64,000 nucleotides of DNA from NCBI GenBank assembly GCA_964485795.1, contig CAZAJQ010000002.1, positions 65,043-129,042 of the forward strand, written 5' to 3'. Below are positions 28,520 through 38,928 of this stretch, one piece after another. Each line of letters begins with the position of its first letter. The first letter of the stretch is position 1. The position numbers and the translations under genes were made by a program. This DNA is from an uncultured Gammaproteobacteria bacterium (lineage in GTDB: Bacteria; Patescibacteriota; Patescibacteriia; VMEV01; CAZAJQ01). A model generated the notes under the pieces. It made no database searches. It was not told the DNA's origin and saw only the letters and a program-made list of their open reading frames with translations.

Positions 28520-28873
28520 TTATACATTGAGAAGGAGACTAAAGATGCCGGCTATAATCAGGATGATTTGGCAAATCATCGACGCAAAGACAAAAAAGTA
28601 CGTCAATAGCATATTCTTTCGAAAAAACAGCAATGCCATCACGGTATTGATCAAAAAAATGACGCTTCCCAAAGCCGGAATCACGTAGATGTAATACCAG
28701 TAATGCTGAAAATCAATATTGAAATAGATGTTGTAATGAAGAGGAATGGGATTTTCGGAAACCACGACTCGGCTCGATATGAAAAAATACAAAACCGCAT
28801 TTCCGATCAAAGCCATCAGTACCCCAAACAAAAGAGGCTTGGTGAAAAAAAAATCTTTGAACAATGATTTCAT
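28520..28873 (-). CDS. Hypothetical small membrane protein (117 aa)
   Basis: Three to four hydrophobic helices. Tightly packed between mraY and the cysteine desulfurase gene. Confidence 0.4.
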   Translation of the reverse strand: MKSLFKDFFFTKPLLFGVLMALIGNAVLYFFISSRVVVSENPIPLHYNIYFNIDFQHYWYYIYVIPALGSVIFLINTVMALLFFRKNMLLTYFFVFASMICQIILIIAGIFSLLLNV

Positions 28874-30069
28874 ATTTTTTTCATTCGCAATTCACGCACT
28901 TTTTTTTCAATCACGGAGATGCAGCGATTCACTTCCTGCAGCGTATTGTATTTTCCAAACGTGAATCGCAAAGAAGATGCGGCAATCTCGGCATCGGCTT
29001 TGATGGCCGTAAAAACGTGCGATACGGACAGTGAACCTGAGGCGCACGCCGATCCATGTGATGCGGATATTCCCTCATGATCAAGGGAAAGAAGCAAGGC
29101 TTCGGCGGTTATTCCCCTGAAACTCACATTGACGTTGCTTGGAACGCGATGCTTGAGACTGCCATTGATCACCGTTTCGGGAATGGTTTTTAATCCTGAA
29201 AGGAAGGCCTTTTGCAAACATATCATTTTTTCACGCCCATGTTCTTTTTCGTCCTTTTGCATCTCAACGGCTTTTCCCATTCCGACGATAAGGGGTGTGT
29301 TCTGCGTACCGGGTACAATGCCCCTTTCCTGCGAACCACCAAAGCATATGGGATCTACTTTCACACCTCGTCTGATGAAAAGCGCGCCGATGCCCTTTGG
29401 CCCGTAGATTTTGTGACCGCTGCATGAAAGCAGATCCACCGCCAATGCGTTCACATCGCATGGCAGCCATGCGATAGCCTGCGTGGCATCCGTATGAAAT
29501 ATGATCGGAATATCCCCGCCTTTCAAACGCTCTTTATTGAGATCTCCTATCGCCTTTCCTATCTCCGCAATCGGCTGAATGGTCCCGAGTTCATGGTTCA
29601 CATACATGACGGACACCAAAAAAGTTTGGGGTGAGATGTGCTTTACAAGCTCCGAAACGTCCACATGGCCGTCTTTTCGAACGCCGACAAAGGATACTTC
29701 AAACCCGTTTCGCTCCAGCGCAATGCATGTCTCAAATACCGAAGGATGCTCGATGGCGGTCGTCACGATATGAAGCTTCCCGTTTCCGTATTTTCTCCTT
29801 GCGAAACCCGCCGCTCCCTGCAAGGCGATATTATTGCTTTCCGTAGCGCCGCCCGTAAAAAAAATCTCACCGTAATGACATCCAAAAAAATTCGCTACCC
29901 TATCGCGACTCTTGTCAATCGCCGCAATGGCGGCCTGTCCATGGGCGTGAACGCTGCCGGGATTCCCGTAGTGGGTCAAAAAATACGGTCTCATGCTTTC
30001 CCATACGTCGCTGTCCAGCGCGGTACTGGCGGCATTGTCAAAATATATAGGGTGCTTTTGATATTTCAT
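28870..30069 (-). CDS. Cysteine desulfurase (NifS/IscS-like, class V aminotransferase)
   Basis: MKYQKHPIYFDNAASTALDSDVWESMRPYF...GNPGSVHAHGQ...SGHKIYGPKGIG...CASG. PLP-lysine and catalytic Cys-loop motifs. Confidence 0.85.
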   Translation of the reverse strand: MKYQKHPIYFDNAASTALDSDVWESMRPYFLTHYGNPGSVHAHGQAAIAAIDKSRDRVANFFGCHYGEIFFTGGATESNNIALQGAAGFARRKYGNGKLHIVTTAIEHPSVFETCIALERNGFEVSFVGVRKDGHVDVSELVKHISPQTFLVSVMYVNHELGTIQPIAEIGKAIGDLNKERLKGGDIPIIFHTDATQAIAWLPCDVNALAVDLLSCSGHKIYGPKGIGALFIRRGVKVDPICFGGSQERGIVPGTQNTPLIVGMGKAVEMQKDEKEHGREKMICLQKAFLSGLKTIPETVINGSLKHRVPSNVNVSFRGITAEALLLSLDHEGISASHGSACASGSLSVSHVFTAIKADAEIAASSLRFTFGKYNTLQEVNRCISVIEKKVRELRMKKI

Positions 30070-30150
30070 AACGCCGCACCGTATCATGAAAAATTACAAA
30101 AAACAAGGCTTTTCCTTTGTTTATTATTATAGCATACTGACCCGACCGGC

Positions 30151-33821: not shown

Positions 33822-35162
33822 GTGGCGGAGGAAAGATTCATGGAAAGAAAAATCTTTTTGGCAATTTTTTTTATCTTTACAATTTTTTTGGGGAATGAAG
33901 TGCTAGCGTTTGGTCAGGAAGAATTTAAAGTTTATCTCAATCCGAAATTCATCAATGACCCTGATACCATTGATAGCTGGAGATCAATGTCTGATCTCTT
34001 GATCAAAGGTATTGACAGTCTGGATCAGGCGCTCAAGCAAGATCCATACGGACGCGGCATGTGGAGACTCGCATCTTTTGGACTCTTATGGTTGCATACG
34101 GAAGGGGAATCTACTTTGATACATGAGAGAGGGCACAGAAGGCTCCATGAGAATTATCTAGGAGTTCGAAAATTCCGTCTGGAAACCAAGGATAAGACAC
34201 ACTCGGTGTCTGCCAATTATCTCACGGAATATCTGTATGGCATCGGCGCCTATGGATATGAGACGCATTTTTATACCTCATTCATAACTGCTGACCAGCT
34301 CACTGAGTTCATGCAAAGATACTCAGATAAAGTAGGAGAAAACCCAGAGAAGCACTTTCAAACTACTGGATTATATTATGGCGATGGGCTAAATCGACAA
34401 CAATATGCTTCAGAAGAGTTAGAGGGGAGGTTCCTGCAAGAAAAAGTGCATCCGCTCCATGGCGTGTCATATTTTGATAACATGCGCAGCGCGCTCTTCT
34501 ATGGAGGAATTGAAAATCAAACTTTTGGGGATCCTTATAATTATATCAAGTGGGCTCGCTATGGTGACGTCCGAACATCAATGAAAGATTTGAAGTATCA
34601 TTCTCAGATACCAAAAATTCTTCTCTCGAGAACGAGTTGGGTGGCCTCACTTGGGGTAGTAGGATGGCTTCTCATCCCAAGAACCATAGAAGAAAACTGG
34701 AAAAAAATTCTCAACCTTGGTAGCTTTCTACTGCCAAAAAAAATGGGAAGAATTTTCATGCCTGACTTTGCGACATATCTCACCTCGCAGGGGGTAACAT
34801 GGAAAACGACCGTTCCATGGAAGTCACCAGTGGGAATATGGCAACTCTCGGCAGAGACCAACGCCATCTTCAACAATGTACGGGGGAAGGCCATCAGTGA
34901 AATTTCTCTGAAATATGATTCCGCTTATTTCCGAGACATGTTCCGGTGGTCAAATAAACTCGTGCTCAATCTCAACGGGAGAGGGTTCTGGAATGAGACT
35001 GAACTGGGACTGAAATTCCCCATCGGTCTCGAAGTCGGTGTCAAGTATAGCGTTGGATACGGCTTCACATACTGGAGAGAAGTAGGCGGAAATACGGCAT
35101 ACTTCCTCAAAGAGCGTGAGGTGAATTTCAAACTCTATCTCAAATACGATCTCAGTTTCTAA
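33822..35162 (+). CDS. Secreted hypothetical protein with HExxH motif and C-terminal beta-strand-rich region ending in Phe
   Basis: N-terminal signal peptide (IFLAIFFIFTIFLGNEVLAFGQ). HERGH matches the HExxH zincin motif. The C-terminus is alternating aromatic/hydrophobic (...VGYGFTYWREVGGNTAYFLKEREVNFKLYLKYDLSF). Strong SD. Confidence 0.55.
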   Translation: MAEERFMERKIFLAIFFIFTIFLGNEVLAFGQEEFKVYLNPKFINDPDTIDSWRSMSDLLIKGIDSLDQALKQDPYGRGMWRLASFGLLWLHTEGESTLIHERGHRRLHENYLGVRKFRLETKDKTHSVSANYLTEYLYGIGAYGYETHFYTSFITADQLTEFMQRYSDKVGENPEKHFQTTGLYYGDGLNRQQYASEELEGRFLQEKVHPLHGVSYFDNMRSALFYGGIENQTFGDPYNYIKWARYGDVRTSMKDLKYHSQIPKILLSRTSWVASLGVVGWLLIPRTIEENWKKILNLGSFLLPKKMGRIFMPDFATYLTSQGVTWKTTVPWKSPVGIWQLSAETNAIFNNVRGKAISEISLKYDSAYFRDMFRWSNKLVLNLNGRGFWNETELGLKFPIGLEVGVKYSVGYGFTYWREVGGNTAYFLKEREVNFKLYLKYDLSF

Positions 35163-35345: not shown

Positions 35346-36152
35346 ATGAAAAATTGGATTAATTTTATTGATATTTCCTGTGAGCTGCAGGAAATTGAAA
35401 AAGGAGAGAAAATGCAAAAAGAGGGGTATGATAACATGCAGCTCAAAAATCTAGATGCTGATCCAGAGATTATAGCCATGGAAAATGAAATCAAAAAAAT
35501 TAAGAAAAAAATTGATGAAGTGAAAAAGGAAAAAGCATGTCATGAAATAGCCCTTATGGAACGTGGAGCAGCGCTTCGGATACATGGAACTGAAACCATT
35601 GAAAAAAAATTCAGCGAGTTTATGAACCGCGCCGAAAACGGGGAGCTGGGAGTCGGGCATCTCGCCTTGGTGAAGAGCATTCCACCCTATTTTGCTCGAT
35701 TGCTGTGTATCAATGGAATGGAATTCGCTTGCGTCAATTCCAGCAAAATTCTCGGCCATCACATATATCCCAGTCTGTTCAAGGATTTCAATTCAGGGAA
35801 GGTAAAGGATATCTATATAAAGGTAAAATCAATCGACCATACAGAAATCAATCTCAATGACGCAAAAGCTCTCTTTGAGCGAATCGCCATGGAAATGATT
35901 CAGCTCGGAGAAATTTTGAATCCTTTCTGTAAAATCCCCGGCTTCGAAATCCCTATCGGGGTATGCTATTTGCTCTCGGAAAAAGGCGATTCTGACCGAG
36001 TCACCTATGGAGCGAGATTAAACTCAGGGAGGTATGCACTGGTGGATAAAAAATTTGAGCTGAATTATTTTTCCATCGATCCCTATGGCAAAATCCATGT
36101 CGAGGGAATGCCAGAAGATCACGCAGACGTAGAGAAGTTCTTTAAAAAGTAA
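35346..36152 (+). CDS. Hypothetical protein with N-terminal coiled-coil (268 aa)
   Basis: Lys/Glu-rich heptad-like N-terminus (EIKKIKKKIDEVKKEKA). No signal peptide. SD AGGGAG 5 nt before the ATG. Family unknown. Confidence 0.5.
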   Translation: MKNWINFIDISCELQEIEKGEKMQKEGYDNMQLKNLDADPEIIAMENEIKKIKKKIDEVKKEKACHEIALMERGAALRIHGTETIEKKFSEFMNRAENGELGVGHLALVKSIPPYFARLLCINGMEFACVNSSKILGHHIYPSLFKDFNSGKVKDIYIKVKSIDHTEINLNDAKALFERIAMEMIQLGEILNPFCKIPGFEIPIGVCYLLSEKGDSDRVTYGARLNSGRYALVDKKFELNYFSIDPYGKIHVEGMPEDHADVEKFFKK

Positions 36153-36173: not shown

Positions 36174-36210
36174 TAAAAAAACCGCGCATACAAAAACGCG
36201 GTTTTTTTTC
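36174..36210 (+). terminator. Rho-independent terminator (plus-strand gene 35346-36152)
   Basis: aaaaaaACCGCGcatacaaaaaCGCGGTtttttttc: perfect GC stem plus a T-run. Confidence 0.55.
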
Positions 36211-36221
36211 GTTTTAATGAC

Positions 36222-36256
36222 AAAAAAAGGGAGAGAAACATTTTCTCTCCCTAAAA
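36222..36256 (-). terminator. Rho-independent terminator of the Cys-rich precursor peptide gene
   Basis: Minus strand reads GGGAGAGAAAatgTTTCTCTCCCttttttt: 10-bp perfect stem, 3-nt loop and a 7-U run. Lies 6 nt after the peptide stop codon. Confidence 0.6.
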
Positions 36257-36261
36257 TTCAG

Positions 36262-36426
36262 TTATTTCCTACAATTGCAGTTGCAATTGCAAGCATTGTC
36301 TCCGCACTTTCCGGAACATTGACTCCCATTAGTTTTGGGGGTAATGCCAGATGGCTTCACTGCCGGGACAATCTTTGTAACAAGATGTTTCTCGAGCAGT
36401 ATTTTTTTCATCTGCGCAGTAGACAT
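36262..36426 (-). CDS. Cys-rich small peptide, candidate RiPP precursor (54 aa, six Cys in the C-terminal 18 residues)
   Basis: Manual translation of the minus strand: MSTAQMKKILLEKHLVTKIVPAVKPSGITPKTNGSQCSGKCGDNACNCNCNCRK*. SD GAAAGGAGG (36432-36440) sits 5 nt before the ATG. Dedicated terminator. The gene begins 73 nt downstream of a radical-SAM/SPASM gene on the same strand. Absent from the ORF track because it is under 60 aa. Confidence 0.6.
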   Translation of the reverse strand: MSTAQMKKILLEKHLVTKIVPAVKPSGITPKTNGSQCSGKCGDNACNCNCNCRK

Positions 36427-36431
36427 TGCTG

Positions 36432-36440
36432 CCTCCTTTC
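36432..36440 (-). promoter_or_regulatory. Shine-Dalgarno site (AAAGGAGG) of the precursor peptide gene
   Basis: Reverse complement of cctcctttc. 5 nt spacer to the ATG at 36426. Confidence 0.5.
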
Positions 36441-36499
36441 TGAGTAAAATATTTCAGAAACTTCTCACACTTCAGCCTTATTCGATAGGTATCACCTCC

Positions 36500-37537
36500 T
36501 TACATAGGAATAACTTCCCTAGGATCATATACAAACCATAATAAAGGACAACCGCCACCGCATTCATGATATTGTTTGCAATTCAGACAAGTTTCCGCAG
36601 GAATTCTCACGAGCATGTCATTAAACTCTCGTCTCTCAGAAGTATCCCAAAACGTTTGTAACCCTTCCGCATCACTGAAGTCTTCCCCGAGTTTACCGAG
36701 TGTAAAACCATGCATGGCGTTACAGGGGATAATCCTTCCCCGATCATCAAATATCACACCGCTCCGTTGCATAACATGACATCCGCTATAAATCTGATTC
36801 CTTTCTTTCAAAAGCTTTGAAAACTCCTGAGAAAAAAGACAGAAAGGGAGTGAAACATGTATCGAGAGCTTTTCACCAACTCTTTCATAGAGTCTCGGGT
36901 AAATCTCTTCAAATTTCTTTGCAGCGTTTTTCGGATCAATCATACACCCTTTTTCTGCCACTAAATTCGTATTAAAGGTCGTCGTGCAAAATTCCAACGA
37001 TACATGCGGAGCACCATTTTTACATGCTATATTCACCATTTCATCAAGATTCCCTATATTTAATTCGGTGATGGTAATAGATACGCTGAATCCAATGTTT
37101 GATTGCGATAAATTTTGGATTGCAGCTAGAACCTTGTGAAAATTATTCGCCTTTGTAAGACGCCTTTGCTGTTCTTCATTGCCAGCTTTCAAAGAGACAC
37201 TCACGTTTAATTTCAAACCATCAAATTTTTGAAGATATTTAGGGTCTGAAAAGCGAACACCATTACTGACCACCACAGGATAAAGATCCATATCATTGGC
37301 GCATGATATAAGCTCTGGTAGAGGTTTCCAGAGGGTTGGTTCACCACCCAAAATCTTTGGGCTCAAAATCCCCAAATCTCGAGAAATCTGCAAATATTGT
37401 TTCGCTTCATCAAACGTCATCTGAGAACTTGGAGTAAATCCTGTGGAACTCGCATAGCACCAACTGCATCGCAACTGACAAGCACGGTTAACGGTAATCC
37501 AGATACCAGAAATACCGTTATCTGTTTTCTGATCCAT
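36500..37537 (-). CDS. Radical SAM enzyme with C-terminal SPASM domain (putative peptide maturase, anSME-like architecture)
   Basis: CQLRCSWCY (CxxxCxxC) at residues 21-28. GGEPTL SAM-binding motif. C-terminal CHVMQ...IIPCNAMHG...ETCLNCKQYHECGGGCPLLW (Cx2Cx5Cx3C) is a SPASM/twitch auxiliary cluster signature. SD AAAGGAG 7 nt before the ATG. 345 aa. Confidence 0.85.
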   Translation of the reverse strand: MDQKTDNGISGIWITVNRACQLRCSWCYASSTGFTPSSQMTFDEAKQYLQISRDLGILSPKILGGEPTLWKPLPELISCANDMDLYPVVVSNGVRFSDPKYLQKFDGLKLNVSVSLKAGNEEQQRRLTKANNFHKVLAAIQNLSQSNIGFSVSITITELNIGNLDEMVNIACKNGAPHVSLEFCTTTFNTNLVAEKGCMIDPKNAAKKFEEIYPRLYERVGEKLSIHVSLPFCLFSQEFSKLLKERNQIYSGCHVMQRSGVIFDDRGRIIPCNAMHGFTLGKLGEDFSDAEGLQTFWDTSERREFNDMLVRIPAETCLNCKQYHECGGGCPLLWFVYDPREVIPM

Positions 37538-37602: not shown

Positions 37603-38739
37603 CTATCCGGCTATATTCTTCAAGCTTTCCACGATCACCCCTCCCCCGATCAGCTTCTCGCCTTTATAGAAAACCGCCGACTGGCCGGGCATGACGGCAC
37701 GCTGGGGGCTATCGAATTCAATGCGATACCGCCCGTCTCCAAGCTTTTCCATCACGAACGCCGGCTCGCGATGATGATATCGGATGGAGCAGATCACCGA
37801 CATGGGAAGAATCGGCAGTTTTCCGTCAATCCAATTTGTGGATTCGCAAACCAAAGTTTTTGAAAACAGCTTGGGATCATTGCGATCATAGGAAACTTCA
37901 AGGATATTGTCATCGTAATTCAGACCAACCACATACATCGGCCCGATACCGCCAAGCTTGATTCCTTTTCTCTGTCCGAGCGTATAGAGCGGCAAACCGT
38001 CATGCTTTCCGACAACATGGCCATTGCTATCAAGAATATCTCCGGGTACGAGCACAAGATGACGCTTCAAAAATGGATACTGATCTTTTTCTTTGTAAAA
38101 ACACACTTCCTGACTGTCCGGCTTTTTTGCGGTCGGGAGGCAATAGTCTTCGGCCAGTTTGCGAACTTCGGTTTTTCTAAAATTGCCGAGGGGAAACAGG
38201 ATACGCTTCATCTGACTTTGCGTGAAATGATACATGAAATACGACTGATCTTTTTTCTCGTCAATGCCGCGAAGCAAAGCATGGCTCCCATCGGATTCCT
38301 TTCTGATGCGCGCATAATGACCGGTCGCGACGGCATCGCAGCCGAGCTCATCGGCACGATTGAGAAACTCGCCGAATTTCACGAATTGATTGCAATTCAG
38401 GCATGGATTGGGTGTCAATCCGCTTTGGTATTTGCGAATGAAGTCATCCACGACTTTTTCCTTGAACGTTTTTCGAAAATTAAGCGTGTAAAGCGGAAAC
38501 CCGTACGAATGAGCGATTCTTCGAGCCCCTTCATAGGCGTCCAGATCGCAACATTTATTTTGAGCCGAATCCATCGTCAAAGTGTCAAATTTCACATCCG
38601 CGGAGTCCAAGGATTCCTCCCAAAATTTCATAAAGATGCCGACCAAATCATGCCCTTTTCCAGCAAGCATCGCGGCAACGACGGAGCTGTCCACTCCGCC
38701 CGACATGGCCACGAGAATTTTCTTTCGAGCTCTTCCACT
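37603..38739 (-). CDS. mnmA: tRNA-specific 2-thiouridylase
   Basis: KILVAMSGGVDSSVVAAML PP-loop, catalytic Cys residues and the C-terminal beta-barrel. Start set at the MSGRARKK internal Met. Confidence 0.9.
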   Translation of the reverse strand, partial: SGRARKKILVAMSGGVDSSVVAAMLAGKGHDLVGIFMKFWEESLDSADVKFDTLTMDSAQNKCCDLDAYEGARRIAHSYGFPLYTLNFRKTFKEKVVDDFIRKYQSGLTPNPCLNCNQFVKFGEFLNRADELGCDAVATGHYARIRKESDGSHALLRGIDEKKDQSYFMYHFTQSQMKRILFPLGNFRKTEVRKLAEDYCLPTAKKPDSQEVCFYKEKDQYPFLKRHLVLVPGDILDSNGHVVGKHDGLPLYTLGQRKGIKLGGIGPMYVVGLNYDDNILEVSYDRNDPKLFSKTLVCESTNWIDGKLPILPMSVICSIRYHHREPAFVMEKLGDGRYRIEFDSPQRAVMPGQSAVFYKGEKLIGGGVIVESLKNIAG

Positions 38740-38928
38740 CATATATAAAAAATCGAAACTTTTGAGTTTCGCTTTTAAACAGCTTAAATTAGAATATTTG
38801 CGTTTGGAAGTCAACTTTTCTAGAGACAGTCTCAAGAATCTCGCGCAATGGTGAATTTAAAACCTCATAAGAGGCTGCATAACCCAAGACCGTTCGAGGT
38901 TTGCCATCGAGAAGTGCTTGCACACGCT

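Follow-up and report, generated by a model that had tools for sequence, protein, structure and literature searches.

Characterised radical S-adenosylmethionine (SAM)/SPASM maturases that act on cysteine-rich peptide cores, among them AlbA, SkfB, CteB, PapB, QhpD, NxxcB and StsB, generate S-C bonds (PMC10288494, PMC8326336, PMC9413430). In the sactipeptide precursor StsA, the core CxCxCx4GxGxG provides a CxCxC strand that is laddered by sactionines via StsB (PMC10288494), and Asp or Asn serve as thioether acceptors of PapB, QhpD and NxxcB (in part from PMC9413430). Here, we describe a locus on a 64,000-nucleotide stretch of contig CAZAJQ010000002.1 (hereafter the window) that comprises a gene for a radical SAM/SPASM enzyme (36500-37537) and, immediately downstream, a short open reading frame (ORF; 36262-36426) for a peptide ending in alternating Cys. 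Our preferred reading, held with reasonable though not firm confidence on the basis of sequence comparison, is that both genes form a two-gene cassette for a peptide that is ribosomally synthesised and then modified post-translationally (RiPP), in which the enzyme would mature the peptide, most likely by Cys thioether cross-linking.

The peptide ORF is located on the minus strand of the window, as are all features of the cassette given below, and encodes 54 amino acids followed by a stop codon (MSTAQMKKILLEKHLVTKIVPAVKPSGITPKTNGSQCSGKCGDNACNCNCNCRK). An earlier note on this DNA had pointed out the ORF for its spacing C-x3-C-x4-C-x-C-x-C-x-C, which was exactly reproduced: the six Cys occupy residues 37, 41, 46, 48, 50 and 52, all within the last 18 residues. 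Likewise, the Lys-rich, Cys-free segment that had been described as leader-like was recovered, as residues 1-36 (36319..36426) contain six Lys and no Cys. This leader region includes the family motif LLEKHLVTKIVPAVKPSG at residues 10-27 (nucleotides (nt) 36346-36399). The core region (residues 37-54, CSGKCGDNACNCNCNCRK; 36265..36318) carries the six Cys with three C-x-C repeats at the C-terminus, and offers D43, N44, N47, N49 and N51 as potential acceptor residues. A Shine-Dalgarno site, AGGAGG (36432..36437), as read from the sequence, precedes the ATG by 5 nt. Moreover, an intrinsic terminator (36221..36252) begins 10 nt past the stop codon of the peptide ORF; it consists of an 11-bp stem (AGGGAGAGAAA/TTTCTCTCCCT) with a 3-nt loop (36252 to 36228), followed by seven T residues (T7). 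Within the window, a single ORF of 40 or more amino acids contains six or more Cys among its last 19 residues, as compared to a mean of 0.03 in 100 shuffles.

Public protein collections do not list the ORF as a gene, and a look-up of its exact translation among 15 billion proteins gave no match. A word-index search and a phmmer search of 1.84 billion representatives with the peptide yielded nothing useful, and homologues were therefore found through the enzyme. The peptide gave no family match at E<=1 in NCBIfam and Pfam, in agreement with the earlier note, which did not recognise its CNCNCNC arrangement from any RiPP class.

A spacer of 73 nt (36427..36499), closed in all three frames, separates the enzyme gene from the peptide ORF. 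The alternative small ORF that the earlier note had considered here, following the Shine-Dalgarno-like sequence AAGGAGGTGA (36492-36501), is thus ruled out. This orphan sequence overlaps the TAA stop codon of the radical SAM gene and has no ORF after it; it may be a relic of an earlier peptide start or a ribosome standby site. The former would fit the relatives described below, since their peptide ORFs start close to the enzyme stop codon, usually from 20 nt before to 40 nt after it. Both genes are also carried by short Logan contigs (SRR12113383/4). One of these, an independent read-set assembly from SRR12113383 (L001; handles of this form denote individual loci), is identical until a Nextera adapter, CTGTCTCTTATACACATCT, that was observed at the contig end (1296-1314). 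Because the adapter truncates the peptide ORF, the apparent C-terminus ...CNCNCTVSYTH of this contig is an artefact.

The decisive context of the peptide, which the entry of the earlier note did not mention, is the adjacent gene for the 345-amino-acid radical SAM/SPASM protein (36500..37537), located 73 nt upstream on the same strand. A short ORF at this distance and in this orientation corresponds to the generic arrangement of radical SAM/SPASM RiPP loci. The radical SAM motif CxxxCxxC of the enzyme is formed by C20, C24 and C27. Its C-terminal half is of the SPASM type, with C253-x13-G-x4-C272 followed by C317-x2-C320-x5-C326-x3-C330; the seventh C-terminal SPASM Cys is missing, the invariant Cys being taken from a profile alignment (A1). 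Two further Cys, C184 and C233, are nearly invariant. In Pfam the protein matched the Radical_SAM domain only, and against every NCBIfam equivalog, including MoaA, PqqE, MftC, NirJ2, StsB, PapB, DynA and anSME, it scored 40-71 bits with cut-offs of 180-650 bits.

An AlphaFold2 model of the enzyme, built with 57 homologues, reached a pLDDT of 93.8 and a pTM of 0.91. The best Foldseek matches of the model were SuiB (TM 0.71) and anSME (0.68), followed by SkfB and PqqE, and a profile search of the sequences in the PDB returned SkfB, SuiB, CteB, PqqE, MoaA and anSME. Judged from the model and the profiles, the neighbours of the enzyme are peptide-modifying SPASM enzymes, namely SkfB, SuiB, CteB, PqqE and anSME. 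The matches begin only at residue 113 of SkfB, 136 of SuiB and 96 of CteB, which indicates that the window enzyme lacks the N-terminal RiPP recognition element (RRE) domain. In line with this, its radical SAM motif is located as early as residue 20, and Pfam and NCBIfam scans of the neighbouring genes did not reveal a PqqD/RRE match.

The SPASM Cys C272, C317, C320, C326 and C330 align one-to-one with C276, C317, C320, C326 and C330 of anSME. In anSME, C348 provides the fourth ligand to the second auxiliary cluster; the window enzyme has no corresponding Cys because it ends 15 residues past C330. Judging from the sequence, C184 or C233 might substitute for C348 as a cluster ligand. Alternatively, by analogy to CteB, whose auxiliary cluster binds a Cys of the substrate, the missing ligand would leave room for an auxiliary cluster with an open site.

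Through the enzyme, 127 homologues with 30-43% identity were found in databases, and 160 loci were fetched from genome and metagenome collections, 136 of which remained after removal of duplicates. In 101 of these 136 non-redundant loci the enzyme gene is adjoined by a Cys-rich small ORF on the same strand, which is located downstream in 89 and upstream in 12 loci, the latter mainly in Firmicutes. When the same criteria were applied to random anchors in the same loci, 41 of 758 (5.4%) scored, which corresponds to a 14-fold enrichment at the enzyme. According to their labels, the host genomes are mostly Patescibacteria (candidate phyla radiation, CPR), namely Saccharibacteria, Moranbacteria, WWE3, Portnoy-, Falkow-, Nealson-, Kuenen-, Vogel-, Zambryskii- and Paceibacteria as well as CPR2; the others belong to Clostridia, Erysipelotrichaceae and a few other metagenome-assembled genomes (MAGs).

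Alignment of 37 family peptides with the window peptide (A2) revealed a shared Cys-free leader motif, M-x2-3-L-x2-LL-x5-[ST]-G-[IV]-x-P-x3-P-x-G, with the alignment consensus LL-x5-T-x3-P-x3-P-x-G and an invariant Gly that matches G27 of the window peptide. When all 1398 six-frame segments of the window were scored with a leader-only hidden Markov model (HMM) built in a leave-one-out manner, the window peptide was recovered with E=3e-5, and the runner-up followed at 0.53. As this model covered the Cys-free leader only and did not contain the window sequence, the homology of the peptide is independent of its Cys composition. Leader and core are thus conserved differently, a point that the earlier note had proposed to examine by alignment of homologues: the leader is conserved, the core is variable, and both co-occur with the enzyme across genomes, as is characteristic of bipartite precursors. 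The view that the ORF encodes a RiPP-type precursor with leader and core is hence supported by its position behind the radical SAM/SPASM gene, by the family-wide pairing and by the leader homology. We conclude that the window ORF encodes a real precursor peptide that annotation has missed.

Hypervariable in both length and sequence, the cores contain 2 to 26 Cys; the homologues keep the Cys pattern, whose loss would have spoken against the proposal of the earlier note. C-x-C is the dominant spacing, accounting for 261 of 504 Cys-to-Cys gaps. Of the Cys-Asn alternation that had been emphasised for the window peptide, only the spacing is conserved and not the Asn, since the middle residue of C-x-C is D in 91 cases, N in 39, K in 23 and Q in 23, D or N making up half. 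The cores consist of 30% C, 14% D, 10% G and 6% N with few hydrophobic residues; D accounts for 4.7% of the leaders, which amounts to a three-fold enrichment in the core. An odd number of Cys was counted in 38 of 87 family peptides (44%). The closest enzymes pair with the most similar, CNC-type cores, as seen for L082 (enzyme 43% identity; core ending in ...CSNCVGQCNCKCAPQCNCNCR, also given as ...CNCKCAPQCNCNCR), L111 (41%; ...CNCNCAPACNCS) and L002 (41%; ...CKNCICKCQNCKCGHC).

A search of 5.8 billion proteins with the A2 profile returned six unnamed short matches only, and a scan of 47 further relatives against curated libraries gave no significant match to a peptide family. Weak matches to FibroRumin (E=0.041, one member), CopL (E=0.23, one member) and MSCRAMM were dismissed as composition noise. 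The full-text literature searched does not describe the family, which may have been listed earlier, without a name, in the 2022 radical SAM RiPP atlas.

In most relatives the peptide gene is followed by a gene for a small HExxH protein of 125-240 amino acids, which was found in 62 of the 98 loci (~63%) whose 3' flank extends over 1.2 kb or more. Among the closest CPR relatives whose flank suffices, nearly all carry it. L002 is without it. Examples are L008 (2376-2771), L004 (5248-5748) and L021 (5153-5809), and the gene was likewise observed in L003-L016, L021-L027, L031, L080, L083-L087 and others. The HExxH proteins fall into three BLAST clusters that belong to one superfamily (HHalign probabilities of 97%, 98% and 85%). 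Their sole family signal is a sub-threshold match to SprT-like zincins, without any other Pfam or NCBIfam family. Judged from these sequences, the HExxH protein is probably the leader peptidase of the relatives. In the 64-kb window, no homologue was detected by tblastn at 1e-3, and no HMM match was better than E=0.3. As the HExxH gene is missing within 64 kb, the window cassette represents the minimal two-gene form, as in SCIFF cassettes.

With regard to the described systems, the locus is reminiscent of StsA/StsB and BlaA/BlaB from Streptomyces (PMC10288494), which likewise combine Cys at alternate positions (CxCxC) with a SPASM radical SAM maturase resembling MftC and PqqE. The arrangement that had seemed unfamiliar in the earlier note hence has a precedent in the CxCxC core of StsA (PMC10288494), whereas no curated Pfam or NCBIfam model matched the peptide. 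The product of these systems, a hairpin laddered by Cys thioethers, is a likeness insofar as thioethers are proposed here. In contrast to StsA, the window core lacks a GxGxG acceptor strand, and the leader differs; the family also varies between 2 and 26 Cys per peptide. StsB possesses an N-terminal RRE, which the window enzyme lacks, the match to its model beginning at profile position 95, and the StsB model (NF045574) gave 59.9 bits on the window enzyme with a cut-off of 625.

SCIFF systems (CteA/CteB, Tte1186; ranthipeptides) resemble the locus as two-gene cassettes of a SPASM enzyme and a peptide of ~50 amino acids with six Cys near the C-terminus, without a dedicated protease or transporter and with ordinary genes around. 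However, neither the SCIFF core (of the GGCGECQTSCQSACKTSC type) nor the SCIFF leader is present in the window peptide, which did not match TIGR03973. Moreover, CteB has an N-terminal RRE-like domain, unlike the window enzyme; the SCIFF maturase model (TIGR03974) gave 53.6 bits for a relative, with a cut-off of 425, and lies outside the best 25 matches of the window enzyme. On sequence grounds, the system would work like SCIFF/CteB and StsA/StsB but belongs to neither family; most maturases of the curated families compared here are marked by an RRE, which is absent from the window enzyme.

PapB/freyrasin, NxxcB and QhpD share periodic Cys motifs with an Asp, Glu or Asn acceptor; in the present family, D and N are likewise enriched among the core residues that separate the Cys. 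PapB, NxxcB and QhpD act on CX3D or NxxC motifs and not on CxC, and D and N are not conserved across the window family; the window core is devoid of a CX3D repeat, and the PapB model (NF047865) reached 53.8 bits on the window enzyme, with a cut-off of 340. With anSME the enzyme shares a barrel plus SPASM architecture of ~350-370 amino acids without RRE, as reflected by the Foldseek match, but the substrate of anSME is a sulfatase with a C/S-x-P/A-x-R motif and not a leader peptide, and the TIGR03942 score was 42.7 bits with a cut-off of 349. Finally, Haft-type targets (CXXX-repeat, Cys-every-fifth CefA, ACGX-repeat, FibroRumin and Clo7bot) display tandem Cys periodicity next to a SPASM maturase. 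Here, the period is 2 (CxC), and the NCBIfam peptide and maturase models of these targets were not matched (rSAM_ACGX 51.7 bits, cut-off 400).

For the two-gene cassette we propose the following pathway. The enzyme and peptide genes would probably be co-transcribed, possibly together with the upstream mnmA gene, and transcription would stop at the hairpin after the peptide gene. The enzyme would directly recognise the leader motif LL...T-x-IVP-x3-P-x-G, a recognition that must be RRE-independent in this RRE-less enzyme. In the SuiB-SuiA crystal structure, the leader reportedly touches the bridging and catalytic regions and not the RRE. Chemistry of the 5'-deoxyadenosyl radical and the auxiliary Fe-S clusters would then act on the C-terminal, C-x-C-rich core, resulting in a peptide tightly linked by thioethers that join the Cys sulfur to a carbon in a residue next to it or on the opposite strand. 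The acceptor might be the alpha carbon, as in sactionines, or the Asp or Asn beta carbon, as in ranthipeptides (PapB, NxxcB and QhpD). In most relatives the downstream HExxH protein would probably cut off the leader; in the window, another protease may take over this task, or the leader may be kept.

Of the outcomes suggested in the earlier note, thioether or other cross-links and metal binding, we favour thioethers because characterised SPASM maturases that act on Cys-rich cores make S-C bonds, because the positions between the Cys are most often taken by Asp and Asn, which PapB, QhpD and NxxcB use as acceptors, and because StsA shows that a CxCxC strand can form a sactionine ladder. Moreover, the frequent odd Cys counts speak against an all-disulfide design, and on the same grounds an all-disulfide end state is judged unlikely. 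Taken alone, thioether cross-linking as the chemistry has, in our estimate from sequence, slightly less than an even chance. Several observations weigh against it. The enzyme carries eight further conserved Cys (C184, C233, C253, C272, C317, C320, C326 and C330), which could supply every ligand that two auxiliary clusters need, as happens in anSME, leaving no CteB-like open site. Among its nearest structural matches are SuiB, anSME and PqqE, none of which makes thioethers. Conservation is lacking at the positions between the Cys, where K, Q, R, H, P, V and Y can all be found, and no single acceptor rule fits the whole family. Besides, the window contains neither an HExxH partner nor any transporter. 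The same enzyme features would suit a genuine RiPP with another chemistry, such as an anSME-like oxidation that turns Cys into formylglycine or a thioaldehyde, epimerisation at alternate positions, C-C or C-O links, or Cys-Cys chemistry: the architecture of the enzyme, a barrel plus SPASM without RRE, is that of anSME, including the aligned SPASM Cys, the best structural match SuiB makes a C-C link, the extra Cys could saturate both auxiliary clusters, and the alternating C-x-C would be well suited for modification of every second residue. We nevertheless regard such chemistry as quite improbable, given the score of the anSME model far below its cut-off, the absence of the C/S-x-P/A-x-R motif from the peptide and the absence from the cores of Trp, Tyr and Lys, on which C-C cross-linkers typically draw as donors; furthermore, thioethers are the usual outcome for characterised SPASM enzymes with Cys-rich substrates (PMC10288494, PMC8326336).

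The composition of the cores, in which Cys makes up ~30%, D, G, N, K and S are abundant and hydrophobic or aromatic side chains hardly occur, likewise weighs against thioether cross-linking and would be in accordance with a metal-binding product resembling a metallothionein, a chalkophore or a small Fe-S peptide, in which most thiolates stay free while the enzyme adds few modifications or prepares the scaffold. C-x-C is the classic metallothionein spacing, and the dominance of this spacing in the family matches it. The Cys counts show no parity preference, the window cassette lies amid housekeeping genes with neither transporter nor immunity gene beside it, and the occurrence of the family in many reduced genomes hints at a physiological rather than an antibiotic role. 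Still, we deem a metal binder of this kind unlikely: apart from CopL (E=0.23), no metallothionein or metal-binding family in Pfam (37 members scanned) or NCBIfam was matched, 2-26 Cys with varying spacing are unlike a defined metal site, and the strict pairing with a SPASM enzyme together with the conserved leader is typical of covalent maturation. Membership in a curated Cys-rich family (SCIFF, CXXX-repeat, Cys-every-fifth, ACGX-repeat, FibroRumin, Clo7bot or the StsA/BlaA sactipeptides) would follow the same general logic of a SPASM enzyme beside a Cys-rich peptide, with the CxCxC motif of StsA and the single weak FibroRuminTarg match (E=0.041) in its favour. It is very improbable, since neither the window peptide nor the 47 relatives were significantly matched, and it is effectively refuted by the enzyme scores, which remain far below the model cut-offs. 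That the ORF arose by chance and has no function might be read from its lack of annotation in any public protein collection; the probability of this is negligible in view of the Shine-Dalgarno site, the terminator, the shuffle expectation, the leader homology and the 14-fold enrichment next to the enzyme, the comparative data refuting it. A bolder extension of the preferred cassette reading, possible but rather doubtful in our view, is a new RiPP class of Patescibacteria and some Firmicutes, in which the RRE-less SPASM enzyme, the undescribed leader motif and the C-x-C repeats would give rise to a structure unlike that of sacti- and ranthipeptides. This could be a ladder of very small thioether rings (adjacent or i+2) or a covalently pre-organised poly-thiolate metal binder, and the system would be rounded off by a dedicated mini-zincin (HExxH) partner. 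Since extremely reduced genomes retain the cassette, its product might function in metal handling or in interacting with a host cell rather than as a classical bacteriocin.

Patescibacteria have tiny genomes and very little secondary metabolism. The loci described here now define a recurrent cassette of a radical SAM enzyme and a peptide, with an HExxH protein in most loci, across many CPR lineages and some gut Firmicutes. As far as can be told from sequence, it constitutes an uncurated, widespread family that combines an RRE-less SPASM enzyme with a Cys-rich peptide having its own leader motif, a Cys core of period 2 and, usually, a mini-zincin partner. As the compendium of PMC10288494 is restricted to RRE-associated enzymes, it should not contain this family, and the RRE-less maturase lies beyond that dataset. 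The leader motif and the enzyme profile permit mining of unannotated short genes that gene callers miss, and the window provides a compact two-gene test case for radical SAM action on C-x-C repeats. The importance of the locus is limited in that many uncharacterised radical SAM-peptide pairs exist and the chemistry is here predicted from sequence; for the window alone, it is a well-supported, uncharacterised RiPP precursor and no new principle. Experiments are feasible, since a homologous cassette is present in the cultured isolate Pumilibacter muris strain CLA-AA-M08 (L060, NZ_CALPCN010000002.1), where we observed an enzyme of 32% identity and an 89-amino-acid precursor with a long CDCDC/CVCEC core.

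In the window, the cassette is embedded in housekeeping surroundings with the gene order lepA, recJ, rnhA, mnmA, enzyme, peptide, two convergent ORFs, alaS and a NifS/IscS-like desulfurase gene. The mnmA gene (37603-38835, minus strand) is separated from the cassette by a 65-nt gap; this adjacency is probably a coincidence, as mnmA is not a conserved neighbour at other loci. For the two ORFs converging on the cassette (33822-35162 and 35346-36152, plus strand; 446 and 268 amino acids), neither Pfam nor NCBIfam yielded a match at E<=0.1. Between these ORFs and the peptide gene, a second terminator-like hairpin was noted (36185-36200). The gene for the NifS/IscS-type cysteine desulfurase (28870-30087, minus strand) is located ~6 kb from the cassette. 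Family scans of the neighbours detected no transporter, protease, immunity gene or mobile element adjoining the cassette, and the window contains no tRNA and no Rfam family at the gathering threshold.

Further variation was observed among the homologous loci. In Firmicutes homologues with an upstream precursor, the core displays a period-3 repeat, ACGACGACGACG (Cys-Gly-Ala), as found in Lachnospiraceae, Clostridiales and Bacillota MAGs at L020 (2624-3058), L022 (3702-4001), L034 (3780-3998) and L068 (3778-4038). Neither these precursors nor their enzymes matched the NCBIfam ACGX-repeat peptide model or rSAM_ACGX (51.7 bits, cut-off 400). In addition, a second radical SAM protein of 486 amino acids recurs near the cassette in 11 loci, and some genomes contain two or three paralogous cassettes, as seen for L005 (2247-3305 and 4001-5029) and for L029, L039 and L065, which belong to one Myxococcales MAG.

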